A stretch of 64,000 nucleotides of DNA from Candidatus Woesearchaeota archaeon (lineage in GTDB: Archaea; Nanobdellota; Nanobdellia; Woesearchaeales; GCA-2687795): NCBI GenBank assembly GCA_002687795.1, contig NZBG01000034.1, forward strand, positions 10,362-74,361, given 5' to 3'. The position numbers and the translations under genes are program-made. The notes beneath the pieces were generated by a model, which ran no database searches, was not told the DNA's origin, and was given only the letters and a program-made list of their open reading frames with translations. Shown here one piece after another: positions 507-55,195 of the stretch (position 1 is the first letter of the stretch; each line of letters starts with the position of its first letter).

Positions 507-3500
507 ATGGCTGAAGAAGATAAGGAAACAGAAGAAGATGAAAATATAGATATTGACTTCAGTAAGATTAAGAAATTCTTTAAAAATCTCTTCAAAGAAG
601 ACAAAGAGGAAGAGAAGAAAGAGCTTAAAAAGGAGATAAAAGAAGTAGATAAAGAAATAAAGGAAGATATCAAGGAGAAAAAGGGAGATATAAAGGAACT
701 AAAAGAGGAAGAAAATGAAATCAAGGAGATTAAAGAAGATATTAAGAAAGAACCTTCTGAAAAGGAATTAGAGAAAGCAAAAGAAGATATTAAGGAAATA
801 AAAGAAGAGGTTGAAAAAGAGGAAGAAGATGAAATCAACATTGACTTCTCAAAAATAAAGAACTGGTTCAAGAAAGCTTTTTCTGAGGATAAAGATAAGA
901 AAGATATTAAAGAAGAGAAAAAAACTGATGAAGAGGAAGAAGTATCGTTTGATATCAAAAGAGCAAAATCATTCTATGCTCAATATAAGCATTATATAAT
1001 CCCTATTTTATTCATATTAATTGCCGGCATTTTCTCTGTCTATTTAAGGATGATGCCTGATTCTCTCCCAATAACTGATGATTGGGCAAGGAACTCTGTT
1101 TATAGCGGTGTCAAGTCGCAAATCAAAGGTCAGATAGACCAGCAATATCCAAATCTGCCGGATGCCAACAAGAATGGTCTGGTTGAGGTTGAGTTCAATA
1201 AGCTGTTAAAGGCAGAAAGATCAGCTATAGAGCAACAGGTAAAAGGAACCTCCCAGTTCTTTAAATCAAACCTTAAAAACGAGAAAGGAACAACATATCT
1301 GCTGGCAATAGACCCTTATTATTGGTATAGGTATTCAAGGAATGTTATTGAAAAGGGAACAACAGCAGATACAACCAAAGATGGAATCCCATGGGATGAC
1401 CATATGCTTGCACCATTAGGAAGGCCTGCTGACAGCAATTTCCATATTTACTTTGAAGTGTTCTTGTATAAAGTCTTTTCAGCTTTTAACAAAGACCTTG
1501 ACTTAATGAAGGTTGCATTTTTTATTCCTGTTATAATATCCACATTATCAGTAATACCTGCCTTTTTCATTGCCAGAAGGATAGGAGGTAATTTAGGTGG
1601 CCTTATTGCAGCTATAATGGTTGCAATCCATCCGGCATTGTTAGGAAGGACAGCCGGCGGATTTGCTGATACTGATGCATACAATGTATTTTTTCCATTG
1701 GTTATAACCTGGTTAGCACTGGAAGCTTTCGAGTCAAAGAACTTAAGAAGCAAGATAATCCTTGCTTCTTTGTCAGGTTTCTTTGTTGGATTATTTTCAT
1801 TTTCCTGGATGGGCTGGTGGTATATCTTCGACTTTATCTTGATAGCCTTACTGTTTTACATTACATATTTCATAATTGTTCACAGAGAACACCTGAAGAA
1901 GGGCATTTCATATTTCATTTTCAACACACCGGTTAAGAATACACTGATATTATTAGTCACTTTCCTGTCTGTATCCTGTGTTTCTGTTACTTTGTTTACT
2001 GATTTCTGGACTTTCAGAACAGCGCCAACACAGCCATTTAACTTTGCGCAGATAAAAGTAGTAGGGGTCACAAAGATATGGCCGAATGTTATAACAACAG
2101 TAGCTGAGCAAAATGAGGCTTCTCTAAACAATGTTATTAACCAGATAGGAATAGGGAAAAGGCTTTTCTTCTTGATCAGCTTAATAGGAATAATATTATT
2201 ATTAGTGAGAAAACAAAGCAAGAGACCCAGTGACCTGTGGTTTATCTCCCTCGCAAGTTTATGGCATTTTATTATTCTTGCTTTTAAGCCCCAGGATCTC
2301 CATACATTTATTGTATTAATTTCCCTGCCCATAATAGCAAAGATACTGATAGCCTTAAAAGAAAAGGACACAAAAGCAGATATAAAGCTGGCTATAATAC
2401 TTATTATATGGTTTATAGCAACCATTTATGCAAGCACGAAAGGTATAAGATTTTTGTTATTGTTTGTGCCTGCCTTCAGCCTGGCATTTGGCATTGCATT
2501 GGGAATTATCTATGAATACTGTTCCAGCCTGATATCAAAAAGCCTGAACATACACCAAACCATTACAAAGGCGGCATTATTGCTCCTGATATTCTTTTTA
2601 TTCTTATTAAGCCCAATAAACGCTGCAAAGTCAACAGCCAGGAGCGAGATACCTTCTATGAACGATGCATGGTATTCTTCATTGGATAAAATAAGGCTTG
2701 AATCTGAGCCGGATGCTATTGTTAACTCATGGTGGGACTTTGGGCACTGGTTTAAGGCTATTACTGACAGGGCTGTCACATTTGACGGCACTACACAGGA
2801 TATGCCACAGGCGCACTGGATAGGCAACACTTTGCTAACCAGCAGCGAGGAAACTTCTGTTGGTATTCTAAGAATGCTTGATTGTGGGGCAACCAATGCC
2901 TTTGATGAACTTGATAAGGTTATCAATGATGGTGCTAAATCAGTTGATATTTTATACGAAATTATTGTTGAAAAGGAAACAAAGGCAAAAGATACACTCA
3001 CTAATAATTATAGTCTTACAGAAGAACAGGCAGCCAAGGTGCTTGAAAACACTCACTGCGACCCACCGGAGAACTACTATATAACATCCGAAGATATGGT
3101 AGGAAAAAGCGGTGTCTGGGCCCATTTTGGCTCATGGGACTTTGACAGGGCTACTATTTATAATACGCTTATTAAAAAGGATTATAAGAAGGATAAAGAA
3201 AAAAGCGTTCAGTTTTTAATTGAAAGATTCAATTATACAAGAGAAAAGGCTGAGAATATATACTATGACGTAAACTCTCTCTCTTCAAACAGGGCTGTTA
3301 ACGACTGGATAGCCCCATGGCCATCTTATATGTCAGGATCAAGCAGTTGTCCAAGACTAAACAATGAAACATTATCCTGCTCGTTCGGCCAGGGAAATGT
3401 TATAATTAATTTAACTAATTACGATGCTTTCATACCCACACCTACCGGCACCAAATATCCCAATTCTATTGTTTATCCATCAGAAGATGGTATCCACGAA

Positions 3501-3968
3501 AAGAGGTTCTATAATAATACTCTTGGGTTTAGCATGGCTCTGATACCTGATAAGAACGGAAACTATCAGAATGTTGTATCAAGCCAAGAGATAGCATCAA
3601 GCATGTTTAATATATTGTTTTATATGGAAGGCCATGGCTTAAGGTATTTCAAGAAGTTCTCTGACCAAAGCAGCGTATTTGGAAACAGGATTATTGTATG
3701 GAAGGTTGACTGGGAGGGCTCTGAGATGAACAAATTAGATTATTTTAAGGCAAAGGAGGCTGTTAACCAGACAACCGATCAAACAGATATAAATATAACA
3801 GAAGAAGATACAGATTTCTTAATAAAGAATATTTCTGGAAATGATTCAGAAGCTGCAGAAACAATAAATGAAACTGATGTAACCTCAAACGCCTCTGAAC
3901 AAGCCGAGGATAATCAGACAACAGCTGAAACGGAAAAGCTATCTCCTCCCAGAGTATCAATAGAATAA
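507..3968 (+). CDS. aglB: Archaeal oligosaccharyltransferase AglB (STT3 family) with a long K/E-rich N-terminal extension
   Basis: Polytopic N-terminal half and a periplasmic C-terminal domain. The hallmark WWDFGHW (WWDYG-type) motif lies at about nt 2738-2758. The first ~150 aa are charged KE repeats. Confidence 0.88.
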   Translation: MAEEDKETEEDENIDIDFSKIKKFFKNLFKEDKEEEKKELKKEIKEVDKEIKEDIKEKKGDIKELKEEENEIKEIKEDIKKEPSEKELEKAKEDIKEIKEEVEKEEEDEINIDFSKIKNWFKKAFSEDKDKKDIKEEKKTDEEEEVSFDIKRAKSFYAQYKHYIIPILFILIAGIFSVYLRMMPDSLPITDDWARNSVYSGVKSQIKGQIDQQYPNLPDANKNGLVEVEFNKLLKAERSAIEQQVKGTSQFFKSNLKNEKGTTYLLAIDPYYWYRYSRNVIEKGTTADTTKDGIPWDDHMLAPLGRPADSNFHIYFEVFLYKVFSAFNKDLDLMKVAFFIPVIISTLSVIPAFFIARRIGGNLGGLIAAIMVAIHPALLGRTAGGFADTDAYNVFFPLVITWLALEAFESKNLRSKIILASLSGFFVGLFSFSWMGWWYIFDFILIALLFYITYFIIVHREHLKKGISYFIFNTPVKNTLILLVTFLSVSCVSVTLFTDFWTFRTAPTQPFNFAQIKVVGVTKIWPNVITTVAEQNEASLNNVINQIGIGKRLFFLISLIGIILLLVRKQSKRPSDLWFISLASLWHFIILAFKPQDLHTFIVLISLPIIAKILIALKEKDTKADIKLAIILIIWFIATIYASTKGIRFLLLFVPAFSLAFGIALGIIYEYCSSLISKSLNIHQTITKAALLLLIFFLFLLSPINAAKSTARSEIPSMNDAWYSSLDKIRLESEPDAIVNSWWDFGHWFKAITDRAVTFDGTTQDMPQAHWIGNTLLTSSEETSVGILRMLDCGATNAFDELDKVINDGAKSVDILYEIIVEKETKAKDTLTNNYSLTEEQAAKVLENTHCDPPENYYITSEDMVGKSGVWAHFGSWDFDRATIYNTLIKKDYKKDKEKSVQFLIERFNYTREKAENIYYDVNSLSSNRAVNDWIAPWPSYMSGSSSCPRLNNETLSCSFGQGNVIINLTNYDAFIPTPTGTKYPNSIVYPSEDGIHEKRFYNNTLGFSMALIPDKNGNYQNVVSSQEIASSMFNILFYMEGHGLRYFKKFSDQSSVFGNRIIVWKVDWEGSEMNKLDYFKAKEAVNQTTDQTDINITEEDTDFLIKNISGNDSEAAETINETDVTSNASEQAEDNQTTAETEKLSPPRVSIE

Positions 3969-4003: not shown

Positions 4004-5131
4004 ATGCTAAATTATCAAATAAATCCTAAATTTAAGCCATTTATTTTAATAGCAGATATGCTGGGTTATGCATTAATTCATCCTATTTTAAGCCTGAAGC
4101 GCTTTAACAAAGCCAAAATAAAGAGAATATTGGTTATAAGGATAGATGAGATAGGGGATGTTATACTGGCAACTCCTGTTTTCAGGGCTCTGAAAGAGGA
4201 GTTTCCTGGCTGTAAGGTTGATGTGTTGGTTAAGAAAGGGACAAAAGAAGTGTTAGAGCATAATCCTAATGTTGATAATACTATAATCTGTGAAAAAGAC
4301 TGGCTGAGGAATAAGCTGGACATAGCCTATTTTCTTTCCCTTGCAAAAAAGCTAAAGGGAAAATATGATTTAATGATAGAGCTGCATACATCCCCTGTAA
4401 ATATATTGCTTGCATTCTTTATTGGAGGTTATAAGATAGGCTATGCATTCAGGGGGCTTGGATTCCTTTCGAATAAAACCAGGTTCTTAGCTAAAAAAGA
4501 GCATATTATTGACAGAAACCTGGATTTGTTAAAACTAATTAATATTAACCATAAAAGCAGAAAAATGGACGTATTCTTTTCAAAGAAAGAAGAAGTCTAT
4601 GTTAATGCTTTACTCAAAAAACACAAACTAACAGGAAAGAAACTAATCTGCATCAACCCCGGAACATTAAGAGCCAATAAACTATGGCAAAACAACAAAT
4701 GGGCAGAGCTTTCTGATACTTTAATGGAGAAGTATAATGCTTATATTTTGTTTACCGGCTCTTCCAATGAAAAGCCTTTGGTTAATGATATTATTAGCAT
4801 GGTTAAGAATAAGAACAAAGCTGTTAATTTAGCTGGAGAAACAGGTTTGCTGCAGTTAGCTGCATTGATTAAAAGATGCAGGCTGTTTATTGGAACTGAT
4901 TCTGGCCCTTTGCATATAGCAAGGGCAGTGGAAACGCCTTTGATTGGCTTATATGGGCCGACCAATCCTTTTATTTGGGGCTATAATGAGGATAAGTATA
5001 AGTCTGTATACAAAAAGCTGGACTGCTCTTTCTGCAATCAGGAAGGTTGTAAAAGGAGAAAAGAAAAAGAGCTTTGTCTTAGGTCTATTAAGGTAGAGGA
5101 CGTAGTAAAAGAAGTTAAAAGGCTTTTTTGA
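4004..5131 (+). CDS. Glycosyltransferase family 9 (ADP-heptose:LPS heptosyltransferase-like)
   Basis: The motifs RILVIRIDEIGDVILATPVFRALKE and C-terminal LFIGTDSGPLHIARAVETPLIGLYGPTNP are typical of the RfaF/WaaC GT9 fold. Confidence 0.7.
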   Translation: MLNYQINPKFKPFILIADMLGYALIHPILSLKRFNKAKIKRILVIRIDEIGDVILATPVFRALKEEFPGCKVDVLVKKGTKEVLEHNPNVDNTIICEKDWLRNKLDIAYFLSLAKKLKGKYDLMIELHTSPVNILLAFFIGGYKIGYAFRGLGFLSNKTRFLAKKEHIIDRNLDLLKLININHKSRKMDVFFSKKEEVYVNALLKKHKLTGKKLICINPGTLRANKLWQNNKWAELSDTLMEKYNAYILFTGSSNEKPLVNDIISMVKNKNKAVNLAGETGLLQLAALIKRCRLFIGTDSGPLHIARAVETPLIGLYGPTNPFIWGYNEDKYKSVYKKLDCSFCNQEGCKRRKEKELCLRSIKVEDVVKEVKRLF

Positions 5132-6289
5132 TTACTTCCTCTCTTTCTTCTTCGTGTAAGCAAAGTAACCAACTAATCCAATAAGAACGATCGCTGCTGC
5201 AACCAGCCAGCCATACTTTGGTTTTGGTGGAGGAACTATATCTTCTTTATCCTCTTCTTCTTCTGGTGGCTTAGCCTCTTCTGGTGGAGCTGCTACTACT
5301 TCTTCACCGCCAGCAATAGTATAAGACTTTATAGAACTCAGTTTTTTCTTGACTGTATAACTTAAATCAAGGGATTTGCCTTTCTTTAAAGAATCAATAG
5401 TCCATTGGACAACAGGATCTTTCTGCAATACCTCAGGGGTTTCTCCTGTAAATGCCAAATCATCAGTTGATTTTGCAACAGTTTTTGGTATTATCTCAAC
5501 AACCTTTATCTTTTTCATATCTTTAGGAGCTGTAACAACCAATGTAATCTGTGTCCTGTATACATAATCACCTGTATCCAGATTTTCTATATTATAAACA
5601 GTTAAGGTTCTTGTAACCCCTGCCTTAGCCTTTTCTCCGGATTCAAACCCTGCCTTTAATTCCTGTAAAACTGATATTGCTTTTGTGCTAGTAACATGCT
5701 CTATTGCCTCTTCTATTCCTGCTGGGGTGTTCTTCCCAAAGGTTTCAGTTGAAGCATCCCCTACCCGAGAATATTTAAGATTATCATCTTCCCAGCCCTC
5801 TGGCAGTGATTTTTCTAATCTGTTAATAATATAGGAATCCGATGCAATCTCTGTTAAGGTTTCTGTTGTAGCAGCTGAGCCACCGCCAGCACCTCCTGTT
5901 GAGCCTGCTGCTGCAGCTGCTGCAGCTGAATAGCTTAGATTGAGTTGTGTGATACCTCCTGGCGTAAAAGCAGAGCTTCCTGAATCAGTTCCGCTAGCTA
6001 TAAATGTAATAGTTGCACCTGAAGTACAGACACTTTCGCCAGCAGCGCATACAAACAACTTTTCATCACTCGCGCCTGCACCTCCATAAACTCCATCATG
6101 CGTAGTTGTTATACTGCCAACAGTAGTACCGCCTATGTTAGCTGTTATCGTTAACCCAGCAGATGCGCCTGTTATTGTGCCAAAATATGCCTCTGGGAAA
6201 GCTGGAAGACTTTCTCCATAAGCAATTCCTATTAAAGAAAAAAAAACCATTATTAAAATTATTGCTTTATTCATCTTTGTGTTGCCCAT
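5132..6289 (-). CDS. Secreted cell-surface protein with an N-terminal signal peptide, a G/A/T/S-rich region, a P/E-rich stalk and a C-terminal TM anchor
   Basis: N-terminus MNKAIILIMVFFSLIGIAYG, a poly-Ala/Gly stretch, a PPEEAKPPEEEEDKEDIVPPPKP linker, and a C-terminus WLVAAAIVLIGLVGYFAYTKKKERK. Confidence 0.5.
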   Translation of the reverse strand: MGNTKMNKAIILIMVFFSLIGIAYGESLPAFPEAYFGTITGASAGLTITANIGGTTVGSITTTHDGVYGGAGASDEKLFVCAAGESVCTSGATITFIASGTDSGSSAFTPGGITQLNLSYSAAAAAAAGSTGGAGGGSAATTETLTEIASDSYIINRLEKSLPEGWEDDNLKYSRVGDASTETFGKNTPAGIEEAIEHVTSTKAISVLQELKAGFESGEKAKAGVTRTLTVYNIENLDTGDYVYRTQITLVVTAPKDMKKIKVVEIIPKTVAKSTDDLAFTGETPEVLQKDPVVQWTIDSLKKGKSLDLSYTVKKKLSSIKSYTIAGGEEVVAAPPEEAKPPEEEEDKEDIVPPPKPKYGWLVAAAIVLIGLVGYFAYTKKKERK

Positions 6290-6330
6290 TTTTTTAATAA
6301 TCTTAAAAATAAATTAAAAAAAGAAATAAA

Positions 6331-9300
6331 TTAAATCAGGTTCTTGTCAGCGTACCCGTTGAAGGTGTAGTATGAGCTGTCAGCTTTGTTATTTGCCCAA
6401 ATCCAGTATGCGTTGTAAGGTATGAGCTTGTCTGATACTATCGCTGCTGCTGTTCCTATATCTTCTAGGGTATCTGCATATGTAATCAAACCAACTTCGC
6501 TGCCATCTCCTGAGCCTCCTATAGAGTTCAGGAATTTACCTGTTGCTCTCTGGTCAGCTGATGCTGCATCATCTAAGTAGCCATTCACTCCTATCAATGA
6601 ATATGCTCCATCATCCACTTTTACGCTCGTTGTATACTGGCTCCAGCTATCCGGCTCTGGAGAACCCATCAAATCTGTTTGGATAGGCACATCAATTGTG
6701 TTGTTTTTTGTTACACCTGTAATCTTTACCAAATAACCCCTTAATGGTATGAAGTCATTTGATGTGCTTGTTGCTGTTATCCATGCTGTTCCATTATATG
6801 TGTAAACAACTGATATTTGGCCACTATCATTCAAGGCTTTCCAGGTAGGTGTTGAGTTTACATCATGCGGAAGACTAAATCCATTCCATAATATCTCTCC
6901 GTTATTGTCCGCAGTCCATACCATTGCATGGTCATAGATATCTAATGGACCTGACCTATTTGATATTGGATTGCCTGCTGGATCGGTTATTGAGGTTGAC
7001 CCATTCGCTAGTATTATTCCCTGTACTTTTCCACTGCCGTTAAAGATGCCTCTTAACCAGATAGTCATATTGCTACTAATCGCGAAATTCATCTTATTGT
7101 GTTGGGTTTGGTCTCTTAGCCATACAGCTCCTTGATCTGCTGTATCATTGCCATCGAATGAGCCGCTTGTATTACTCCCGTTTGTTAGGTAAATAAGGTT
7201 GCTAATATTAGTAGTAGTATTACTATTAACATAATCAGTAGTAACATTTTCACTAAACTTCAATATTAAAAAGTTTTGTCCTCCTTGTCCTCCTTGCTCT
7301 CCTGTGCTTTCATTGTAATCAAAACCAGTGTCATTATACCATACCATTAACAATGTTGGCAGTGTTGTGTCTATTGTGAAGTTATTCGAGATATTTGCAG
7401 CCATTGCATTATAACCAATATCCCTTGCTCCGCTTACATTAATAATAGTCAATCCATCCATAACATCAGTTTTAAATGCGTGGTCTATGAGATACGAGCC
7501 ATTCCAGACAGTCTCGTTTTCCCATTTTCCCAGTACCACAATGGTGGTTGTGTTGTCAATTGGGTGCAGTGTTACATTGATAGTGCTTGTGTTTGACCAG
7601 TCCATGTATTCATTAAAGGTTACAGTGAATGTAACATTTCCTGCTTTTGTTGGCGTGGTATCATTTAATGAAATCGCTGTAAATACATTTGGCGTTACTA
7701 CATCTGGTGTATAAGTGCTGCTGTTGAGCCAGCCTAATGCTGTTGTGTTCGATAATTGGGTCATATTATTTCCTGCCAGATCACCGAAAGTCAGGTTATG
7801 AGTCCATACATACAAAGTATCTGTCCTCCATGATGAGAGATTAGCATTCTGTTCTCCTGTAAGGTTAATCTGGATAGTGGTTGTATTCTCCATTACATTT
7901 ACTAAAGCACCTCCTAAAGATATCTTTTTCACACTGGTGTTTGATGAGTTACTTTCATTTGCTATAAACACATTTATAAGGAATGTGTCTGTTGCCGATC
8001 TGTTTGGATACATTTTCTCGCTAAAGGTAAAATTAATGGTCCTTGTTGCATGGTCATAGGCAGCGCTTGTAAGATCTGGCCTTGTTATATCTAGTTCAAA
8101 TTCATTCAGGCTCTGGTTTACAACCGCGTTAATCATGTTATCAGAGGTATCATTGAATGCTCCTTCCAATAAGCTTATATTTAATGTTGGTGAGCTAGCA
8201 TTCATGGTCCAGCCAAGTATCGTGTCCCTATGGGCTGTTGATAAAGTTATATTAGAATAGTTAAATGCCTGGTTGTAGGTTACTGACTCGTTCTGTGCAT
8301 TTAAGACAAGATAATCCGTGGTTCCTGCTACTGAGTTATTCATAACCAAATGTATTCCCTCAAGGAAAGTTGCTTCCACTGGCTCATCAAACCTTAATAT
8401 TAAGTACCTGTTGCTGTAATTATAGCTTAGGTTAAAGGTTCTGAGGGTTGGCTTTATGCCGTCTGTTGGGGTTACACTGCCAACACCAGTAGTATTACCA
8501 TAAGCAATGTTCCCAGCATAATCTGAGATATTATGCACTGCATCTGTGGAATTTAGGTAAACAGTTGGTGTTCCATTTGCGCCAATCAGGTTATGGAATA
8601 TCAAAGTAGTGTTTGTGCTGTTCTGTGTAAGCAATGCTGCCGCTGTATAATTAACTCCTCCATAAGTCATATAGAAAGATTTTACAGTCAAAGAATCCAT
8701 CCATATTACCTCACTGAATGTGATATTAATGCTTGTGTTTGTGCTTGCGCCTGCTATGCCTGTGCCGTTTGTAACAGCTGTTGAAAACGTAGGCAGTGTG
8801 TTATCAATTGAAATATTGAAGTCCAAGTTAAATGCTGTGTATGTTTCATAAGTGTCATTATACCCAGCTATTATAGTAAAGTTATGAAATCCATCTAAGT
8901 TATTATTTTGGCCGATTGTAACATTAAACGCAAACCATGTGGTTGTATTAGTGCAAGTGCCAGCCGCAGTACCGTTTGTTATGAATGGGGCTGCGCTTCT
9001 GTTCCAGCTAAGCACATGCTGCTCATTAGAGATATTAGTGAAATTAAAATCCACGGGATTGGCTGCATATACGCCATCTGAGAATCCTGACCAGTTTCCA
9101 TAGCCCCATAAGAACCCGCTATCCATTGTTATATTAATACTTGTGATATTATAGGTTTCGTTAAGATTTATAAGTGTAAAATTGAAGAAGTATGTCCCAT
9201 TATTTAAGTAGTATACCCCATCTAAAGGTCTTATTGTAATATTAAACGGGTAATTAGGTCCCAGGTATCCTCCGGTTTCGTTATCCACCATAACCACATC

Positions 9301-9402
9301 AAGGGTGACATTAATCCCCTCGATCGCACCTTCAGAAACTTCAGAAACTCCAGCCATTACTAATAAACCAACCATAATTAAGAATATGTTTTTATACCTC
9401 AT
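6331..9402 (-). CDS. Large secreted, sequon-dense surface glycoprotein (S-layer-like candidate)
   Basis: Signal peptide MRYKNIFLIMVGLLVMAGVSEVSEG. I counted roughly 70 N-x-S/T sequons by eye in 1023 aa. It is N/T/S-rich with no TM segments and sits next to aglB. Confidence 0.6.
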   Translation of the reverse strand: MRYKNIFLIMVGLLVMAGVSEVSEGAIEGINVTLDVVMVDNETGGYLGPNYPFNITIRPLDGVYYLNNGTYFFNFTLINLNETYNITSINITMDSGFLWGYGNWSGFSDGVYAANPVDFNFTNISNEQHVLSWNRSAAPFITNGTAAGTCTNTTTWFAFNVTIGQNNNLDGFHNFTIIAGYNDTYETYTAFNLDFNISIDNTLPTFSTAVTNGTGIAGASTNTSINITFSEVIWMDSLTVKSFYMTYGGVNYTAAALLTQNSTNTTLIFHNLIGANGTPTVYLNSTDAVHNISDYAGNIAYGNTTGVGSVTPTDGIKPTLRTFNLSYNYSNRYLILRFDEPVEATFLEGIHLVMNNSVAGTTDYLVLNAQNESVTYNQAFNYSNITLSTAHRDTILGWTMNASSPTLNISLLEGAFNDTSDNMINAVVNQSLNEFELDITRPDLTSAAYDHATRTINFTFSEKMYPNRSATDTFLINVFIANESNSSNTSVKKISLGGALVNVMENTTTIQINLTGEQNANLSSWRTDTLYVWTHNLTFGDLAGNNMTQLSNTTALGWLNSSTYTPDVVTPNVFTAISLNDTTPTKAGNVTFTVTFNEYMDWSNTSTINVTLHPIDNTTTIVVLGKWENETVWNGSYLIDHAFKTDVMDGLTIINVSGARDIGYNAMAANISNNFTIDTTLPTLLMVWYNDTGFDYNESTGEQGGQGGQNFLILKFSENVTTDYVNSNTTTNISNLIYLTNGSNTSGSFDGNDTADQGAVWLRDQTQHNKMNFAISSNMTIWLRGIFNGSGKVQGIILANGSTSITDPAGNPISNRSGPLDIYDHAMVWTADNNGEILWNGFSLPHDVNSTPTWKALNDSGQISVVYTYNGTAWITATSTSNDFIPLRGYLVKITGVTKNNTIDVPIQTDLMGSPEPDSWSQYTTSVKVDDGAYSLIGVNGYLDDAASADQRATGKFLNSIGGSGDGSEVGLITYADTLEDIGTAAAIVSDKLIPYNAYWIWANNKADSSYYTFNGYADKNLI

Positions 9403-9607
9403 TTTTATCTAAACCTCCTTTTGCATCCCTTTTTTTTGATAATTTATTAGAAGATAAAGAAACACTTTATCCCCTCTTTTTATTTTTTGATTTATATATT
9501 TGATTATATCATCTACTATTTTTGTTTTTATTACCTAACACGCATATATAAATGTTTCGTTTGCTCTCACATAAGCTTTATTAAATAGAATTAACTTCAC
9601 TTCCCTT

Positions 9608-11188
9608 ATGAAGGCCAATAAAAAGATTGAGATTGCATTGATAGTTGCATTATACTTATTCTGTTTATATATATGGAGCCTTCCATTCCATGAAAACAGG
9701 CTTCCCTATGGCGAGGTTGATGCTGGCTCGCACTTTACAATAGCAGATTATACTGCAGGCACTGACAAGCCAATAACCAGGCTGCCGTATTTTATCGACA
9801 TGAGATATGGAAGGGATAATATTTTCACGCCGCATTATCTTTGGTATCATCCCCCTTATCATGTTAACTTCGCTGTTATGCAGATCATCGGAGGGGAGAG
9901 GGTTTTGCCTGTTTTTCTGTTTAATGCAATACTAAGCTCAGCAATTGTGCTTATTTCCTTCTTTGTTATAAGAAAATTATATGGCTTTTGGGCTGCTTTT
10001 CTTTCCTCGCTTCTACTTTCCTTCTCGCTGAGAGATATTTTTATATACCTCTGGGGGCAATGGCCGCAGCAGATTGCATACTTTTATACTCCTCTGATAT
10101 TATACACATTTTATAGGTACGCTTCCTCTTACCTGGATAAAAAGCCAAAGCCAGTATACATGTATATCCTCTCATTCCTTATGGCTGCAAACATGTTTAT
10201 GCATCCTGCCAGCTTCTTCCATACTGTGATTGCCTTGATATTATTCAGCCTTTTCCTATTTATAAAGGAAAAAAGGATTCCGTTTGCTCTAAAGCATTTT
10301 TTGGTGTTTGCTGTGCTGTTTCTGTTATTGATCAGCATATTTCCTTTCCAGACGGGAAATGTGGTCTTAAAGTCTGCAGGTGGGAAGGTTGGCGTTGGAA
10401 AAAAGGCTGAGATGAAAGGGGATTTCAGCAGACTGTTCCAATGGTTTGGCTACAGGGAATATTTCAGCCAGCCAGATTCCTATTTCACATACAAAGATAC
10501 CATTGGCTCATGGACAATAGGGTTTCTTATACTGGGTTCTATCTATCTCCTGATCAAGAGAAGAAGAAAAGACCTTCTCCTGCTAAGCTTCCTGGCAGGC
10601 ACATATATAATGATCCACCTTATCTTCTTTGGCTTTGGAAGGCCTGAACGCTCATTGGCTGCAACAGCGCATGTGTTCTTCCCTATCATTGCAATAGGAG
10701 TTCTAAGCATCCCAAAGCTGCTTAAGCAGTTTAAGATAAAAGCAGCCTATCTCAGCTATCTTAAGTATCTGCTTATATTCCTCTTTGTTTTCCTTGCATT
10801 TTATTCTAATTTTACCCCTGCCTATAACCTCCTGAAGGATTCTTATAAAGGAATAACAAGAATAACCCCTGCGCAATACAGGGTTACAGAATGGCTTCAG
10901 GAGAATATGCCTGCTGAAGGCAAAGGCATAAACCTTGGCACGCTCACCCAGCAAAAATCAAGATGGATGATGTGGCTTTCATGGAGGTATATAGGAGATG
11001 AAGGCAATCTTAACTTTATCAATTCCTCTTCATATTTCATAATGGATTACTCTGACCTTGCTCTGCTCTACCCTAATTACGGGGAAAGGGTTGAGCAGCT
11101 CAGGATTTTTGAGCAAAGCTATCTTATGAACGCTACTTTGCTTTATAACCAGAATAATATAAAGGTGTATAAGTTTGAAAATACATAA
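9608..11188 (+). CDS. Polytopic membrane protein with a C-terminal extracytoplasmic domain; GT-C-like glycosyltransferase candidate
   Basis: About 10 predicted TM helices followed by a soluble tail of about 150 aa. The architecture, and weak tail similarity to 12268..13755, are consistent with GT-C enzymes. Confidence 0.35.
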   Translation: MKANKKIEIALIVALYLFCLYIWSLPFHENRLPYGEVDAGSHFTIADYTAGTDKPITRLPYFIDMRYGRDNIFTPHYLWYHPPYHVNFAVMQIIGGERVLPVFLFNAILSSAIVLISFFVIRKLYGFWAAFLSSLLLSFSLRDIFIYLWGQWPQQIAYFYTPLILYTFYRYASSYLDKKPKPVYMYILSFLMAANMFMHPASFFHTVIALILFSLFLFIKEKRIPFALKHFLVFAVLFLLLISIFPFQTGNVVLKSAGGKVGVGKKAEMKGDFSRLFQWFGYREYFSQPDSYFTYKDTIGSWTIGFLILGSIYLLIKRRRKDLLLLSFLAGTYIMIHLIFFGFGRPERSLAATAHVFFPIIAIGVLSIPKLLKQFKIKAAYLSYLKYLLIFLFVFLAFYSNFTPAYNLLKDSYKGITRITPAQYRVTEWLQENMPAEGKGINLGTLTQQKSRWMMWLSWRYIGDEGNLNFINSSSYFIMDYSDLALLYPNYGERVEQLRIFEQSYLMNATLLYNQNNIKVYKFENT

Positions 11189-11513
11189 TAAAGAGCTAAT
11201 AATCGGACTTGCAGCAGCTGTGCTTATGTTTTTCCTGCTGTTGTTAGGCATACCAGGCATAAGAACCATACTTGGAGCTTTCTTATGCTTCTTCCTGCCG
11301 TTCTATCTTATAATTGATAATTTCGAGCTGGAAACTGGTGAAAAGATAATCTTTTCATTCTTCATAGGCGTAGTGTTCTTTTCAAGCCTTGTCTATTACC
11401 TGGGAATATTATTAGGCTCAGTAAGAATTGCAATTGTTGTAAGCTTTTTATTATTGACTGCCTTAGGAATCTTTATCAGGAAATTTATAAGGAGCTCTAA
11501 GCCAAGGGCTTAA
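11175..11513 (+). CDS. Small integral membrane protein
   Basis: 112 aa, 3-4 hydrophobic helices, overlaps the end of the upstream gene. Confidence 0.3.
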   Translation: MKIHNKELIIGLAAAVLMFFLLLLGIPGIRTILGAFLCFFLPFYLIIDNFELETGEKIIFSFFIGVVFFSSLVYYLGILLGSVRIAIVVSFLLLTALGIFIRKFIRSSKPRA

Positions 11514-11919
11514 TTTTCCCTCTTGCCCTCTTATCAATTCTCCTTTTTATCCAAAGTATCAGAGAGAATGCTCTGAGCCCAAGAATGTTGCATTTATACA
11601 TATATATTGTATCCATAATAATATGGATAATATAGCCAACAAAAAGCAGGCCAAGGCCTGGATATAGAGACAGCAGGAAAACAACAACAACAAACTCTAT
11701 TGTATGGAATAGTATAAGCACATCCTTGAAATCCAGCTTCTTATAATATTCCAATGCCTTCTTTAGGTTAAAGTCTTTAAACCTGAACATATACCATAAA
11801 TAATGATCAATATCAATAAGGAACCCTCCTATGAATATCAATAATGCCTGCTCTTTGTAAAAGGGGTATAGCAGCATAACAAGCGCTAAGGATACAATAA
11901 AATGCACTAGAAGCCTCAT
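11497..11919 (-). CDS. Small membrane protein, possibly a membrane-bound metal-dependent hydrolase (DUF457-like)
   Basis: 140 aa, multi-TM, with His-containing motifs (DIDHYLWY, HIIMD). Confidence 0.3.
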   Translation of the reverse strand: MRLLVHFIVSLALVMLLYPFYKEQALLIFIGGFLIDIDHYLWYMFRFKDFNLKKALEYYKKLDFKDVLILFHTIEFVVVVFLLSLYPGLGLLFVGYIIHIIMDTIYMYKCNILGLRAFSLILWIKRRIDKRARGKIKPLA

Positions 11920-12299
11920 TCTTTCTTGGCCTTCTTTATCTTCGTTATAACAATCATTAATCCTGCAGCCAGGAAAACCAGGGGAAGCAGGGAATGGTAT
12001 CTGATATCAATGCCTATTAAGCCCAAATGATAGCTTAATATCCCCACCAAAGCTGCTGACAAGGGAAAGCTCAATATTATCCTTTCTATGAACCTCAGCT
12101 TTTCATGCCAGTAGTAAAGCAGGGAAAAGCCCGGAACAAGGAATAACCAGAACAATCCAAACACAACCCTTAAGGTAGGCAGGAAATCTTCTTTATAAAA
12201 GAGCACTTTAAATACTGCAAATATAACCAAAAAAAGTATTCCAAGATAGGTCATTTCTTTCTTTAATTTAGCTAAAGCTTCGCTCTTCAATGCAATCAT
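11916..12299 (-). CDS. Small integral membrane protein
   Basis: 127 aa, 3-4 TM helices, 4-bp overlap with the downstream gene. Confidence 0.3.
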   Translation of the reverse strand: MIALKSEALAKLKKEMTYLGILFLVIFAVFKVLFYKEDFLPTLRVVFGLFWLFLVPGFSLLYYWHEKLRFIERIILSFPLSAALVGILSYHLGLIGIDIRYHSLLPLVFLAAGLMIVITKIKKAKKE

Positions 12300-13755
12300 C
12301 TCCTGGTTTGTTGTTTTTCAGTATAAATGCTATCTGGCTTTCATGTACTATCTCAATAAAATCCTTTTTCAATAGTTCGTTCATTATCAGGAAATTATAT
12401 TCCACAAGCACAGGCTCCCTGCTTGCCTTGTCAAACACATAATAATCCATAATGCATATATCCCTTGGCTTTGTCTTGGGTATAACCTCTTCAGTCCAGT
12501 GGCTCCCAAACTCAAAGAACGATTTTCTGTAAGGATAGCCTGCCCCGCTGTCGCCTGGGAGCTCTGCCTTATAGTACCTCCTTATGCTCCTGTTCTTTAA
12601 AGATTCAATAAAATCTCCTGGGTCAACAAGGAACTGGGTCCTGTGGGTATTCCTTAGCAAGGCATCCTGCCCATAGATATCCCCATAGAAAAAGTATACC
12701 TTTGCATCTTCTTCCGTGTTATACCTCAGCCATTGCAGCACATTCCAATGCAAATTATCCATCATTCCCGGTGTGGAAAGCTTTTGGTAATGGGGTATGA
12801 ATGGTACCTTTGCAAATGAAAACACCGATAGAAAGATTAAGGCAATGCCAATAGAAAACAAAAACCTTTTTTTGATGTTCTTAGCTAACAGGCTTATAAG
12901 CAGATAGATTCCATAACCCATAAAAACCGAAAGATACAAAGGCCATAATGTTCTTACTCTCCATGCATGCCTCTGGAACCCGTAATAGTTCCCTAAGCCT
13001 ATCAGAAACATAAACAATGATACATAAAGAGGAAATGCCCTTTTTTTGGGTGTTAATAGAAAATATGCAAGCCCTATGCCCATAAAGATAAGAATTATCC
13101 CAAAATTGTGCATAAAGTAGAGAGGTGTTGCTGCTCTGGTTGTCTGGAAAGAGAATTTATAGCCCTGTTGAACACCCCAGCCAAACTTGAATATCACCAG
13201 ATAGTAAGCTGATAATATAATGGAAAGTATTGCTGAGTAAGCTAATTTCCTGAATAAAGGGAAAGCCTTTCTTTTGAAAAGCATAACAGCAAAGTAAATA
13301 AAAATAAACATCAAGCCAAAAACAAGCTCAGAAGTATGGCTTATTGTGATGGCTGCTATAAATAATCCAAGCAAACTCCATGATTTGTTTAAATCCATGT
13401 TGTATAATGCCCAAAACAGGGATATAAGGAATAAATGCCCTAAATAGGTTGGCCAGTTGCCCCAGGTGATGCCTGCATAAGGTCCTATAATGCCTTCGGG
13501 GCTGGAAAAAACCAAAATGGACAGGGGTATTGAAAGTATTGCTATAGTCCTGCTAAATTTCCTTATTATAGTATAAAAAACCATAACAAATGCAATTATA
13601 ATAAGGAACACCATTAAATAAGCGCTGTCATAGGTTTCAAGTCCTGTCAGATAAGAAAAGATAGTGCCAAGATGATAGAAAACAGGCGGGTATTGGCCCA
13701 CAACATCCTTATAACCTGCAGAGTTATAAGAGGCTTCGTACCTGTAATTTCCCAT
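12268..13755 (-). CDS. Polytopic membrane protein with a C-terminal soluble domain; GT-C-like glycosyltransferase candidate
   Basis: About 11 TM helices and a soluble tail of about 170 aa. The tail resembles that of 9608..11188 (IMDYYVFD vs IMDYSDL). Confidence 0.35.
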   Translation of the reverse strand: MGNYRYEASYNSAGYKDVVGQYPPVFYHLGTIFSYLTGLETYDSAYLMVFLIIIAFVMVFYTIIRKFSRTIAILSIPLSILVFSSPEGIIGPYAGITWGNWPTYLGHLFLISLFWALYNMDLNKSWSLLGLFIAAITISHTSELVFGLMFIFIYFAVMLFKRKAFPLFRKLAYSAILSIILSAYYLVIFKFGWGVQQGYKFSFQTTRAATPLYFMHNFGIILIFMGIGLAYFLLTPKKRAFPLYVSLFMFLIGLGNYYGFQRHAWRVRTLWPLYLSVFMGYGIYLLISLLAKNIKKRFLFSIGIALIFLSVFSFAKVPFIPHYQKLSTPGMMDNLHWNVLQWLRYNTEEDAKVYFFYGDIYGQDALLRNTHRTQFLVDPGDFIESLKNRSIRRYYKAELPGDSGAGYPYRKSFFEFGSHWTEEVIPKTKPRDICIMDYYVFDKASREPVLVEYNFLIMNELLKKDFIEIVHESQIAFILKNNKPGDDCIEERSFS

Positions 13756-13957
13756 CTCCTTTATGCTTTCTGTTCTTGTCTGGTGCTGAAAGGCATCTGA
13801 AGCAAGATAGGCATAGGGAAAATCATGGCTAAGCTGATGGTCCCATAGGTTTGCGCAGCCTGCCAGAAGCAGGGCAGAAAAGATTACAATAAGGTATATG
13901 TTTTCTGCTGTGTCATTAATTTTTATTTAAACCACCTTTCTGTGCTTCTATTATGCT

Positions 13958-15457
13958 TTATTTCCTGCATAACGCTATATTCCATACTGTTGAGCTTTTA
14001 ATCTTCACTTTGCTAAAATGCCTCTTTAGTAACCTTCTTAACTGGCCTGTTGTCCAGTTCTGAACATGGCCGGGAGTGTTTCCCAAGTCGCTAAGATAGC
14101 TCAGCCTTAAAACATTTGCAATCCTCCATAAAGGCTCTCTGGGCACACTGACAACCAAATATTTGCTGGTCACCTTGCTTATCTCTTCCAGCGCTTTATC
14201 CGGATGCTCCAGATGCTCAAGAAGCTCAGCTGCAACCACGCAGTTAAAAGAGTTTTCCTTGAATGGAATATCATACACTGAACATAGCATATACGGAAAC
14301 TTAGGATACAAGGATTTTGCTTTCCTGACTATATCCTCTTCCAGATCTGTGGCAATGATTTCCGCGTTTGTATATTTGCTGATCTCGTTTGTGATATGCC
14401 CTTCCCCGCAGCCCAACTCAAGAATTCTCTTTGCTTCTGTTCTTTTTATAACGCTTCCAATGTCTTTATAGAACTTATTAATCAAAAGCTTTACAGCAGG
14501 ATTCTTGCTTCTGTGCTTATTATAATAATTGCCTGCAATGTTCTTATACACCCTTTTTTTGTCTGAATCTGTGATGTTTAAGAAAAAGCCTACAACCCCT
14601 GGAATCAGAGTGATTATTGCAAACACAAGTATTGAATAGGAAAAGCCATAAGAAGGTGCTGCATTATAAAACCCAAAAAGTCCTATACTAGCAGATTCCC
14701 TTATGCCCAGCCCTGATATGGTCAATGGGATGCTACCTATAAGGATAGCTATAGGATGAGCAAACATCAGCCTGTAGTTAAGCTCAGGGTTAAGAGATTT
14801 AATAATCAGCAATGCTACAACCAGGCTTGACAGGTAATACATTATTGCAAGAAAATAAGCTGTCAACAAAGAGCGGCTGTTCTGCATGATGGATTTCATG
14901 CTGTTATAATAATCTTCTTTGTACTTATCAGGGAGCTTAAGGATATCAGATAAGAAAGATATCAGCTTTCTGTTGTTTAAGAGAACCAGAACAGTTATCA
15001 GCATTATTACAAAAAGGACTATCATAGCAAAAACAATAGTCTGCCTAAAGAATATAATCATAAAAACCAGGCTTAAAGTCACAAGAGCAACTGCATCCAG
15101 TATTTTGTCCCATAAAATGGTTGGTATGGTTTTTGTAAAGTCTCTCTTTAGAAAATAGGCTCTTGCCAGCTCGCCAGCTTTGGCGGGAGTAAAAAAAGAA
15201 TAGAATATGCCAATAAGTATTATCTTAAACCTTCTTATAAAACTAACCTTTATATCCAGGGCACTAAGGAGAACTCCCCATTTTATAACCCTGAGAGAAT
15301 ATATAATAAAGATCAGGAATACTGCAACAGAAATCAGCATAAGATTTGTATTCTTAAAAGTATCAACGATCTTATCTAAATCTATTTTGAAAATAAGATA
15401 CAACAACAATAATATTGTTATAACTAATTTTATAATAAAGGTTCTCCGTTTAAACAT
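13958..15457 (-). CDS. Fusion protein with an N-terminal UPF0104/LPG-synthase-TM (flippase-like) membrane domain and a C-terminal class I SAM-dependent methyltransferase
   Basis: N-terminal multi-TM domain beginning MFKRRTFIIKLVITILLLLYLIFKIDLDKI. C-terminal ILELGCGEGHITNEI ... VVAAELLEHLEHP, which carries MTase motif I and the post-I region. Confidence 0.6.
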   Translation of the reverse strand: MFKRRTFIIKLVITILLLLYLIFKIDLDKIVDTFKNTNLMLISVAVFLIFIIYSLRVIKWGVLLSALDIKVSFIRRFKIILIGIFYSFFTPAKAGELARAYFLKRDFTKTIPTILWDKILDAVALVTLSLVFMIIFFRQTIVFAMIVLFVIMLITVLVLLNNRKLISFLSDILKLPDKYKEDYYNSMKSIMQNSRSLLTAYFLAIMYYLSSLVVALLIIKSLNPELNYRLMFAHPIAILIGSIPLTISGLGIRESASIGLFGFYNAAPSYGFSYSILVFAIITLIPGVVGFFLNITDSDKKRVYKNIAGNYYNKHRSKNPAVKLLINKFYKDIGSVIKRTEAKRILELGCGEGHITNEISKYTNAEIIATDLEEDIVRKAKSLYPKFPYMLCSVYDIPFKENSFNCVVAAELLEHLEHPDKALEEISKVTSKYLVVSVPREPLWRIANVLRLSYLSDLGNTPGHVQNWTTGQLRRLLKRHFSKVKIKSSTVWNIALCRK

Positions 15458-15839
15458 TTTTAATTAATCCAATCATGTTGTAAATAATAAACTTAAACAG
15501 AAATAAGATACTTATAGAGGTAATAGAACTCCATAAAGCCGAGATATAGAGCATATCAACAAAAACATACATGAACCCAACATTTAATGTTGATAAGAGT
15601 ACTGTGGTTAATGTGTATTTAAGGAATTGTTTATGCATTAGATCTATTGCCACATACATGTAAAATCTTGCTATAAATAATACTACCACAATAGAGGTAG
15701 AGCCTATGACTGTATTAATACTTATTACATCAATGAGCAGCCACATAAGGAAAACATTAATTGCTGACCATGCACCACCCACTATGGAATATTTCAAAAA
15801 GTTCAGTCCATGTTTCTTGTAGTTCAACATTTTTATCAA
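15450..15839 (-). CDS. GtrA-family small membrane protein (polyprenyl-P-sugar flippase-like)
   Basis: 129 aa, 4 TM helices, N-terminus KYSIVGGAWSAINVFLMWLLID typical of GtrA. It overlaps the YfhO-like gene upstream by 4 bp. Confidence 0.55.
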   Translation of the reverse strand: MIKMLNYKKHGLNFLKYSIVGGAWSAINVFLMWLLIDVISINTVIGSTSIVVVLFIARFYMYVAIDLMHKQFLKYTLTTVLLSTLNVGFMYVFVDMLYISALWSSITSISILFLFKFIIYNMIGLIKNV

Positions 15840-18175: not shown

Positions 18176-18250
18176 TTTAAATGAAAAATATCATTATCAA
18201 CCTAAGGCTGAAATCATGTTTCGCTCAGGTCTGGCTTTGCCTTAGACAAC

Positions 18251-19666: not shown

Positions 19667-19717
19667 TTAATTTCCCCCTTGTGTTTTTCCTAGTTAAGCA
19701 GCAGGCTTTAGCCTATG

Positions 19718-21151: not shown

Positions 21152-21168
21152 TTTGGTTGTAGTGAATA

Positions 21169-23917: not shown

Positions 23918-24031
23918 TTTTAGCTGGTTATTTAGTAAAAAACCTCCTCTATAAAAATATTTATTACATAATAGTGACCATTCCAGATTCCTTTATAAAA
24001 CTTATTGTAATTTGTCAGAAAAAGGCTTGAT

Positions 24032-26374: not shown

Positions 26375-26411
26375 TCGCAGAGAGTATTTTCCTTAACTGT
26401 GAGAATAGTAC

Positions 26412-26433
26412 CTACGCAACTGGCGTTGCGTAG
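26412..26433. promoter_or_regulatory. GC-rich perfect hairpin/palindrome (9-bp arms CTACGCAAC/GTTGCGTAG, loop TGGC) in a divergent intergenic region
   Basis: The palindrome is directly visible. It sits in an unusually GC-rich patch of the 237-bp divergent promoter region, and a partial copy TTGCGTAG recurs at about 26508. Confidence 0.4.
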
Positions 26434-26611
26434 CTACATCCTCCCCATTATCGCAAATGAAGTATCGAGGGCCCACCCCTAACAATGGACATTTAAACAT
26501 GCTACTTGCGTAGATACTGGAGTATTAGATAATCATATAAATATTTGTTGATGAATTGACTGTCATACCACAAAAACATTAATAAATAACTGCTCAATCT
26601 ATTCACTAAGA

Positions 26612-27343: not shown

Positions 27344-27350
27344 TACCTTC

Positions 27351-28304: not shown

Positions 28305-28306
28305 TC

Positions 28307-31015: not shown

Positions 31016-31227
31016 ATTAATTCACCGTTTTTGGTTTTTGGGTTTTAGAAATTCCCATAATACAATGAATATTATAAAAACAACAAACCAAAAGAAAAGA
31101 AATCCGCCTATATGGCCCATTTCTTTATAGAGGCAGTTCATACAAACATCTTTGAATAAGTCCATTTTAGTTTTCTGTGAATATAACCGTATTTAAAACC
31201 TTTTCTGTATATTCTGCATAGGATAAC

Positions 31228-33917: not shown

Positions 33918-33984
33918 TTTTCTTTTGTTTTCTTCTGTTTCTTTCTATTTTCTTTTTCCTTCTTTTTCTTTTCTTTACAGTTTA

Positions 33985-34968: not shown

Positions 34969-35002
34969 TTTTCATTCTGTGAGGCTGCTGCGTTAAAGGC
35001 AG

Positions 35003-37103: not shown

Positions 37104-37114
37104 TTTATTGTGTT

Positions 37115-38026: not shown

Positions 38027-38134
38027 TTATTCTCCCCCTAAAACATAGGAAGAAAACAGTTTAGGCTATAAAAATGTTTGTTTTTAAATGGTTTTTAAAG
38101 GCTCTAAACCAAAAGATTAAAAATAAGATATAAT

Positions 38135-41183: not shown

Positions 41184-41260
41184 AAACTCGCATAGCTCTG
41201 GTTATTCTGCCAGGAAAATGCAAAAATTTATAACAAAAATATTATTATTCATCTGTTAAG

Positions 41261-41815: not shown

Positions 41816-41817
41816 TT

Positions 41818-43217: not shown

Positions 43218-43224
43218 TTTAAAG

Positions 43225-45247: not shown

Positions 45248-45262
45248 CCATTTTTCATAATT

Positions 45263-55183: not shown

Positions 55184-55195
55184 GATAAAATCACT

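Follow-up and report, generated by a model that had tools for sequence, protein, structure and literature searches.

A conserved gene pair of Woesearchaeota as a candidate two-component, sequon-dense surface coat

We analysed in silico a window of 64,000 nucleotides (nt) of contig NZBG01000034.1, which belongs to a metagenome-assembled genome (MAG) of a Candidatus Woesearchaeota archaeon. On its minus strand the window carries two adjacent genes annotated at NCBI as hypothetical proteins, the first one for a predicted secreted protein of 1023 amino acids (aa; CMO89_04180) and the second one for a 385-aa protein with a transmembrane (TM) anchor (CMO89_04175). Here, we show that the large protein has many more N-glycosylation sequons than its composition would give, that this excess is found in all its full-length relatives, and that the two genes stay together wherever their context can be seen. 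Because it appears to be secreted and unanchored, because its sequon load is conserved and specific to the exact register of the motif, and because a bona fide AglB oligosaccharyltransferase is encoded nearby, the large protein is very likely a surface-exposed AglB substrate. It is also probable, with less confidence, that the gene pair encodes the surface-layer (S-layer)-type outer coat of this lineage. A previous reading of this DNA, made from the sequence only, had proposed the large protein as both a candidate S-layer protein and an AglB substrate. Given predicted secretion, sequon load and the presence of AglB, the second half of this proposal is very likely, whereas S-layer identity is plausible.

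Sequon load, family and anatomy of the 1023-aa protein

The large gene (9402..6331) comes first on the minus strand and the small one (6289..5132) follows after a gap of 41 nt, both open reading frames (ORFs) being confirmed at exactly these positions. The 1023-aa protein contains 76 N-x-S/T sequons in which x is not Pro (44 NxT and 32 NxS), i.e. 74 per 1000 aa or one per 13.5 residues. The sequence-only reading had estimated about 70 by eye, close to this count, and the run that it quoted, NFTLINLNETYNITSINITM, is found at residues 74-93. Global shuffles of the sequence give 24.6±4.3 sequons (z=12.0) and shuffles inside 20-aa blocks, which keep the local composition, give 25.6±4.3 (z=11.8), with maxima of 41-43 sequons. 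The enrichment is confined to the exact N-x-S/T register, since reverse and shifted motifs match the shuffle expectation. All the control motifs are at chance (28 S/T-x-N, 21 N-S/T, 21 N-x-x-S/T, 4 Q-x-S/T and 11 D-x-S/T), and N-P-S/T is absent from the protein. The 64-kb window was our genome sample for the background: over the 18,479 aa of its other 49 ORFs there are 79 sequons, i.e. 4.3 per 1000 (median 3.5, maximum 19.5). At this rate the count in the large protein has a Poisson probability of 4e-65. Asn makes up 11.9% of the large protein and 4.8% of the other 49 ORFs, and 62% of it lies inside sequons in the former, against 9% in the latter. The sequons span residues 31-900, leaving the final 123 residues sequon-free.

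Word-indexed homology searches gave a single relative of the large protein, low-complexity words saturating the candidates, and it was an exhaustive HMMER search that revealed the family, with 230 proteins at E<=1e-3. About 17 of these are full-length relatives (950-1112 aa, pairwise identity <50%); the remaining ones, of 0.1 to 7.6 thousand aa, share the Ig-like (immunoglobulin-like) repeat region only. Named members are Ca. Woesearchaeota or Ca. Nanoarchaeia. One full-length member, at 42% identity, is found on a 4.7-kb contig (CAZMIO010000023.1, locus L012) of an 'uncultured Methanosarcinales archaeon' MAG, and this contig is probably mis-binned because all other named members come from the two former groups. 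Members turn up in TARA ocean metagenomes, and the lineage is marine and presumably mesophilic.

Every full-length member has 51-76 sequons per 1000 aa (z of 6-13), with 49-65% of its Asn in sequons and forward motif counts of 52-74, against 18-36 for the reverse motif. On average, 37% of 16 relatives have a sequon in the same alignment column as a given sequon of the window protein, for a null expectation of 3.6% and a maximum null of 7.6%. About 20 sites, among them N68, N85, N226, N276, N482 and N752, are common to at least 10 of the 16 relatives at ~25% identity, and the other sites turn over while the total is kept. Since positions are partly conserved and the total is maintained despite turnover, the alignments indicate selection on particular glycosites as well as on overall glycan density.

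One might argue that so many sequons simply reflect an Asn-, Ser- and Thr-rich protein in an AT-rich genome, in the absence of any selection for glycosylation. The genome has indeed about 39% GC, and Asn (11.9%) and Thr (12.7%) are abundant in the protein. But the same composition, even when kept locally in 20-aa blocks, yields 25 sequons and not 76, reverse and shifted motifs show no excess, the excess of true sequons is found in all 17 relatives, and sites are common to them 10-fold above the null. The sequence-only reading had singled out a high general sequon frequency as the finding that would speak against it; the 49 other ORFs of the window, at 4.3 per 1000, have no such frequency. Together with the shuffles and the register controls, this background leads us to reject a compositional artefact, which is also contradicted by the positional conservation of the sites and to which we give practically no chance.

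The mature protein has 108.8 kDa, an isoelectric point (pI) of 4.24, one Cys and 46% hydrophobic residues. As had been noticed at first reading, it seems to be secreted with no TM segment: in a Kyte-Doolittle scan (19-residue window, >1.6) the sole hydrophobic stretch is the N-terminal signal peptide. The latter was called from hydrophobicity and from a helix at residues 3-23 of the AlphaFold2 (AF2) model, with an approximate cleavage site (~26). Two other kinds of anchor were considered and rejected. There is no lipobox Cys in the signal peptide, which discards a lipid anchor of this type from the sequence of the protein. A PGF-CTERM/archaeosortase anchor was discarded because the protein ends in ...YTFNGYADKNLI with no TM helix and the NCBIfam PGF-CTERM model gives no match.

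The AF2 model, made from a 21-sequence alignment, is all-beta and multi-domain (pLDDT 72). The first domain, D1 (residues 27-199), is beta-rich, holds the densest run of sequons, and is unique in that its profile matches itself alone. It is followed by five Ig-like domains, D2 to D6 (residues 200-313, 314-437, 438-566, 567-677 and 678-824), each of which opens with a D-x-x-x-P-x-L motif (residues 200, 314, 438, 567 and 678). Profile cross-matches relate D2, D3 and D4 clearly (i-E of 1e-10 to 1e-13) and D5 and D6 more weakly (5e-5 to 5e-3; D4 to D6 5e-5, D5 to D6 4e-4). The last domain, D7 (825-1023), is unique by profile, carries the family-conserved motifs P-Y-x-A-Y-W and, at its end, F-x-G-x-G, and is a candidate interface with the anchor or with a lattice. 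Pfam Big_5 (PF13205) matches residues 448-549 at 20.8 bits, below its cut-off of 23.6. The same domain is found at E<0.01 in 4 of 21 family members, and precomputed 'faint' Big_5 matches exist on orthologs. Otherwise, the Pfam scan of the protein and the 21 family members gave only sub-threshold CopC, SWM_repeat and DUF2808, and the NCBIfam scan of the protein gave no match. When the AF2 model was compared with the PDB, Foldseek returned generic multi-Ig chains, namely contactin, cytokine receptors, cadherins, RTX adhesins and the bacterial S-layer protein SbsC.

The 385-aa partner and the conservation of the pair

The 385-aa protein (37 kDa, 1 sequon) has relatives at 35-68% identity. It is composed of a signal peptide (1-26), a beta-sandwich (30-120), an Ala/Gly linker (124-141), an alpha/beta domain (145-330), a Pro/Glu linker of low confidence (334-359) and a TM helix (360-384) with a basic tail, KKKERK. 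The signal peptide, Pro/Glu stalk and C-terminal TM segment that the sequence-only reading attributed to this neighbour could all be located in the sequence and in the AF2 model, whose pLDDT is 72 overall and ~88 in the 145-330 domain. A PDB profile search with the family of this protein was empty, and its C-terminal tail, PKYGWLVAAAIVLIGLVGYFAYTKKKERK, has no PGF motif.

Genomic context could be seen at 12 loci: the window, L002, L005, L006/L013, L009, L020, L021, L022, L026, L027, L028 and L029. In every one of them a homolog of the 385-aa gene comes after the large gene, on the same strand and at a distance of 27-77 nt. The partners are recognizable by phmmer/hmmsearch at E of 1e-14 to 1e-164, at identities of the large proteins down to ~25%, and all of them start with a signal peptide, end in a TM helix and a basic tail, and contain 0-2 sequons. 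A metagenome scan with the alignment of the small proteins gave three loci, of which one (L024) is the contig of L008 and two are too short for context. Compared with the window, the two closest relatives differ less in the anchor than in the large protein (69% vs 48% and 65% vs 43% identity). The truly conserved linkage is that between the 1023-aa and the 385-aa genes, to which the sequence-only reading had given too little weight.

Some genes recur around the pair. In the distant loci (L005, L006-L008, L020 and L026) there is a small DUF192 gene just upstream, on the opposite strand. Downstream, one finds an adenosylhomocysteinase gene in L006-L008, L020 and L026, and an AsnC-type regulator in L007, L008, L020 and L026, but not in L005. 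Hence, the pair lies there in a partly conserved neighbourhood that lacks aglB. In L005 a third gene (11164..12495) directly follows the anchor, and its 443-aa product has 17 sequons (38 per 1000, z=3.3). Thus, other surface proteins of these archaea are also enriched in sequons, though to a lesser degree than the large protein. In L002 a Cys-rich protein of 1713 aa with 48 sequons (28 per 1000, z=8) is encoded between the pair and aglB (12722..17863). It ends in ...PPKPKKKIGWLIFSGVALVGLVVFFVYTRRKEEK, nearly identical to the tail of the 385-aa anchor, ...PPPKPKYGWLVAAAIVLIGLVGYFAYTKKKERK, and this common tail may be a lineage-specific anchoring or sorting module.

The AT-rich region upstream of the large gene holds a TATA-like AATATATAAA at 9500..9491 and would act as promoter. 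A strong Shine-Dalgarno sequence, AAGGAGGT, is found at 9420..9413, with GGAGG 11 nt ahead of the ATG, and the same AAAGGAGGT precedes the start codon by 7-11 nt in L001, L002, L005, L009, L020 and L021. The element AAAAAGAGGGGATAAAG (~9481..9465, minus strand) lies ~65-80 nt upstream of the start, recurs in L002 and L001, and could be part of the 5' leader or a regulatory site. Oligo-T tracts are the archaeal intrinsic termination signal. In 12 out of 12 loci a run of 5-18 T occurs within ~20 nt of the stop codon of the large gene, suggestive of a leaky terminator in the spacer that would give more transcript of the large subunit than of the anchor.

AglB and the glycan island

The AglB encoded in the window matches NCBIfam archaeo_STT3 at 4e-21, below its cut-off, in addition to the Pfam match given in Table 1; the Pfam match and the WWDFG motif identify it as a bona fide oligosaccharyltransferase. 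The sequence-only reading placed the large gene immediately downstream of aglB and regarded this adjacency as direct genomic evidence of an enzyme-substrate pairing. Neither statement survives inspection of the locus. aglB and the GT9 gene are plus-strand genes that converge with the pair; GT9 separates aglB from it, and the stop codon of GT9 abuts that of the 385-aa gene. Furthermore, an STT3 gene is found within 8-10 kb of the pair in only 3 of the 12 loci (window, L009 and L002).

One could still imagine, with the sequence-only reading, that aglB and the sequon-rich gene make a dedicated enzyme-substrate module and that their adjacency is functional. The aglB-GT9 block does adjoin the pair in the window and in L009, is ~7 kb away in L002 and is itself present in both relatives, and the pair lies at the edge of a large glycosylation island. 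Yet the genes are convergent, with GT9 between them, and not co-transcribed, and no STT3 gene was found within 8-10 kb of the pair at the nine other loci (L005, L006, L020, L021, L022 and L026-L029). The three positive loci are the closest relatives and make one close clade (the AglB proteins of L009 and L002 are 80-83% identical to that of the window), so that the linkage would effectively count as one evolutionary event. AglB is a general oligosaccharyltransferase: any exported sequon can serve it, and its gene need not be linked to those of its substrates. Finally, what recurs near the pair is not aglB but sugar-nucleotide and glycosyltransferase genes: most other loci are flanked by genes for NTP_transferase, epimerases, UDP-glucose dehydrogenase, GT2/GT4, YfhO and LPG_synthase_TM. 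We regard a dedicated module as very unlikely.

Table 1. Positions of the features of the aglB region in the 64,000-nt window.
Feature	Position	Strand	Evidence
aglB, STT3-type oligosaccharyltransferase, 1153 aa	507..3968	+	Pfam STT3 6e-46; WWDFG at residue 742
GT9 (heptosyltransferase-like) glycosyltransferase	4004..5131	+	Pfam Glyco_transf_9 3.7e-40; NCBIfam heptosyltransferase II 3.5e-42, above cut-off
385-aa type-I membrane protein, proposed stalk/anchor	5132..6289	-	ORF, alignments, AF2 model
Intergenic spacer of 41 nt, oligo-T tracts TTTATTTCTTTTTTT right after the stop codon of the large gene	6290..6330	-	Sequence
1023-aa hyper-sequon secreted glycoprotein (predicted)	6331..9402	-	ORF, sequon count, composition
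C-terminal domain D7, residues 825-1023	6334..6930	-	Domain profiles, family motifs
Five tandem Ig-like (Big_5-like) domains, D2-D6	6931..8805	-	Profile cross-matches, boundary motifs, Foldseek
Domain D1, residues 27-199	8806..9324	-	Own-profile match only; AF2 secondary structure
Signal peptide, residues ~1-26, MRYKNIFLIMVGLLVMAGVSEVSEGA	9325..9402	-	Kyte-Doolittle scan; AF2 helix 3-23
AT-rich divergent intergenic region 5' of the large gene	9403..9607	-	Sequence; putative promoter

The envelope and glycan island extends over more than 55 kb and takes up nearly the whole window (9608..64000). It includes GT-C-like membrane proteins (DUF6541, YfhO, PMT_2), four GT2 enzymes and an LPG_synthase_TM-methyltransferase fusion (13958-15457). 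Four B12-binding radical-SAM (S-adenosylmethionine) enzymes are encoded at 18251-19666, 19718-21151, 22472-23917 and 35003-36457, together with four further radical-SAM enzymes, three with SPASM and one with a 4Fe-4S domain (32841-33917). There are also epimerases/dehydratases, a DegT aminotransferase, a hexapeptide acyltransferase, a GFO oxidoreductase, a MatE-like transporter, a nitroreductase, UbiA, a CDP-alcohol phosphatidyltransferase and phosphodiesterase/sulfatase-type genes. This repertoire hints at an unusual glycan, heavily methylated or otherwise modified. No paralogue of the 1023-aa or 385-aa protein was found elsewhere in the window, nor any tRNA gene. At 56000..58200 the GC content dips to 31.5%, and a gap in long ORFs contains two small overlapping plus-strand ORFs, at 57172-57546 and 57543-58160. 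The second one encodes a Polbeta/NTP_transf_2 nucleotidyltransferase, and this segment may be a small toxin-antitoxin-like insert in the glycan island.

AglB itself has particular ends. Ahead of the first TM helix, residues 1-170 (window 507..1020) make a Lys/Glu-rich low-complexity extension bearing a duplicated motif, NIDIDFSKIKKFFKNLFKEDKEEE and EINIDFSKIKNWFKKAFSEDKDKKD; at 1150 and 1168 aa, the AglB proteins encoded beside the pair in L009 and L002, respectively, have a similar length. At the other end, 7 of its 12 sequons (N1087, 1096, 1108, 1112, 1121, 1128 and 1136; window ~3765..3968) fall in the last ~70 residues, in an acidic Thr/Glu-rich tail (residues 1087-1153), which suggests that this tail might be self-glycosylated.

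A candidate coat: comparison and interpretation

The size of the large protein, its acidity, its near-absence of Cys, its all-beta multi-Ig build and its strong Shine-Dalgarno sequence fit an S-layer or outer-envelope protein. Its mass, pI, hydrophobic content and single Cys are within the S-layer ranges quoted in bioRxiv 10.1101/2021.04.28.441871. We propose that the pair is a bicistronic module for the envelope, conserved in Woesearchaeota/Nanoarchaeia (DPANN). The ~109-kDa acidic all-beta protein would be exported via a Sec-type signal peptide, with no anchor of its own, and outside the membrane AglB would transfer lipid-linked glycans to up to 76 Asn-x-Ser/Thr sites. With 1-2 kDa for each glycan, carbohydrate would probably equal or exceed the mass of the 109-kDa polypeptide. 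The 37-kDa type-I protein would then hold the large glycoprotein non-covalently above the membrane, via ectodomains carried on a flexible Pro/Glu spacer, and the sequon-free D7 is the obvious candidate for the interface with it. Together, the two proteins would make an outermost S-layer-type coat, a functional analogue of SlaA (canopy) and SlaB (stalk) built from unrelated proteins. We infer export, glycosylation, interaction of the two proteins, high expression, partial termination and lattice formation from the sequences.

The SlaA/SlaB system of Sulfolobales (PMC10903991, PMC5744192) resembles the pair in several respects. The genes are adjacent and on the same strand, with the large subunit first, as in the 12 loci described here. 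Like SlaA, the large subunit is predicted in silico to be secreted, beta-rich, multi-domain and sequon-rich with no TM segment; like SlaB, the small subunit has a signal peptide, an N-terminal beta-sandwich and a single C-terminal TM helix. The higher conservation of the anchor in the two closest relatives parallels that of SlaB relative to SlaA (PMC10903991). The T-rich spacer would agree with the large gene being the more expressed one, and in the bicistronic slaAB operon slaA transcript levels exceed those of slaB (PMC5744192). Yet, the two systems also differ. Sequons are ~3.4 times denser than in SlaA (76 in 1023 aa vs 31 in 1424 aa), whereas the anchor has 0-2 of them and SlaB has 14. 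The anchor has a disordered Pro/Glu linker (334-359, low confidence) where SlaB has a 132-residue coiled-coil trimeric stalk. Sulfolobales are thermoacidophilic, whereas the pair belongs to a marine DPANN lineage, presumably mesophilic, whose lattice is putative.

Other DPANN archaea provide a second comparison, made by description only. The gene with the highest expression in the cultivated Nanobdella codes for a protein of 1000 aa that has 5 Ig-like folds and lacks a TM helix; this protein was proposed to be the counterpart of SlaA, a separate TM-anchored protein being that of SlaB (bioRxiv 10.1101/2023.10.27.564410). The putative S-layer proteins of these lineages are Nanobdella aerobiophila MJ1_0160 (proposed anchor MJ1_0707), Nanoarchaeum equitans NEQ300 and Micrarchaeum harzensis Micr_00292 (bioRxiv 10.1101/2023.10.27.564410; 10.1101/2021.04.28.441871). 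As described, they share with the large protein a length of ~1000 aa, a signal peptide, about five Ig-like folds, the lack of a C-terminal TM segment and multiple N-glycosylation sites. Nanobdella and Nanoarchaeum are in the same GTDB class as Woesearchaeales, and a separate TM-anchored partner was also proposed there. However, MJ1_0160 has 15 reported sites against 76 here, a density ~5 times lower, the proposed anchor of Nanobdella is not described as adjacent, and Micr_00292 matches Pfam PF05123, which the 1023-aa protein does not.

The outermost layers of Haloferax volcanii (csg) and Nitrosopumilus maritimus (SLP), as described in PMC12175726, are likewise made of acidic Ig-like chains N-glycosylated by AglB. 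In contrast to the protein studied here, they have far fewer sequons and carry their own anchor, either a C-terminal TM helix or, in csg, a lipid attached via PGF-CTERM/archaeosortase. Here, anchoring would be delegated to a second gene, and there is no PGF-CTERM. A further analogy comes from viruses. HIV-1 gp120 has roughly 25 sequons in about 500 aa. As in gp120, sequons are so dense in the large protein that glycans could hide most of its surface, but the two are unrelated, one being viral and the other cellular, and the density is 74 per 1000 here for roughly 50 there. The sequon density of the large protein is higher than in any of the archaeal S-layer proteins compared with it here, and the pair belongs to no SlaA/SlaB family nor to any Pfam or NCBIfam S-layer family.

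Several observations weigh against an S-layer-type coat. Neither protein has sequence or fold homology to SlaA/SlaB in PDB profile searches of both families or in Foldseek searches of both models. The PDB also contains the solved structure of SlaA. PDB sequence and profile searches with the family of the large protein were empty, its Foldseek matches in the PDB are generic Ig chains with no archaeal S-layer protein among them, and the model of the 385-aa protein had no Foldseek match in the PDB at E<=1e-3. The Pfam S-layer families (S_layer_N PF05123, S_layer_C, DUF1608, SLH) are absent from the large protein and from the 21 family members, and every member is annotated as hypothetical protein. 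The AF2 models are of moderate confidence (pLDDT 72, pTM 0.45-0.51). The anchor is devoid of the long coiled-coil of SlaB, and a disordered Pro/Glu linker would make a floppier tether. Its higher conservation fails in L005, where it is 49% identical and the large protein 50%. Oligo-T tracts are common in AT-rich intergenic DNA and the idea of transcript attenuation is therefore weak. What speaks for a physical interaction of the large protein and the anchor is their gene linkage. Finally, our sample for S-layer candidates was the 64-kb window of the genome.

These points leave room for another interpretation, in which the pair is a non-lattice surface glycoprotein, either a host-attachment adhesin or a loose glycocalyx or 'glycan shield' of an ectosymbiotic DPANN cell, the S-layer, if any, being encoded elsewhere. 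Tandem Ig-like domains are typical of adhesins, Foldseek matches include cadherins, RTX adhesins and contactin, and the Ig-like module is shared with giant multi-repeat surface proteins of 2-7.6 thousand aa. The tether is flexible where a rigid stalk might be expected, a second large anchored sequon-rich protein is encoded near the pair in L002, and glycosylated surface proteins with Ig folds are numerous in DPANN genomes (bioRxiv 10.1101/2023.10.27.564410). But the length of the full-length family remains at 950-1112 aa down to 23-28% identity, and the 7-domain layout is constant to ~25% identity. A constraint from a lattice or architecture accounts better for such constancy than a repeat adhesin would. 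Moreover, the pair is kept as one module in 12/12 loci, its strong Shine-Dalgarno sequence is conserved, and adhesion between proteins would be hampered by glycans that densely cover almost all of the surface. We thus find this interpretation unlikely, and still favour an S-layer-type coat. A more specific scenario is that Woesearchaeota/Nanoarchaeia independently evolved a two-component coat in which carbohydrate would be the main exposed material, the ~109-kDa Ig scaffold with up to 76 N-glycans being held through D7 by a nearly sequon-free stalk. We put this forward as a tentative and rather doubtful possibility.

That archaeal S-layer proteins are AglB substrates encoded near glycosylation genes is an ordinary idea. 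What is new here is an unannotated gene pair, conserved across a lineage, that gives Woesearchaeota a concrete candidate for their envelope. Next to nothing is reported on the envelope of this group (PMC5744192), and as of a 2023 preprint no S-layer protein had been experimentally determined for any DPANN archaeon (bioRxiv 10.1101/2023.10.27.564410). In a Woesearchaeota metatranscriptome, S-layer protein genes were in the top-10 expressed (PMC11606122). The domain boundaries, conserved glycosites and anchor model are also new, and can be used with marine or groundwater metatranscriptomes, with metaproteomes and in cryo-electron tomography of DPANN cells. Dense S-layer glycosylation has been viewed as an adaptation of thermophiles (PMC10903991). 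A conserved and extreme sequon load in a presumed mesophile runs against this view and points to shielding or recognition, not thermostability. Our results also suggest that the split of the surface layer into canopy and stalk arose more than once in archaea, the pair appearing to be an independent and non-homologous instance. If carbohydrate is indeed the main material exposed by the coat, such a shield of glycans could be where an abundant uncultivated lineage controls its contact with hosts and its resistance to viruses.

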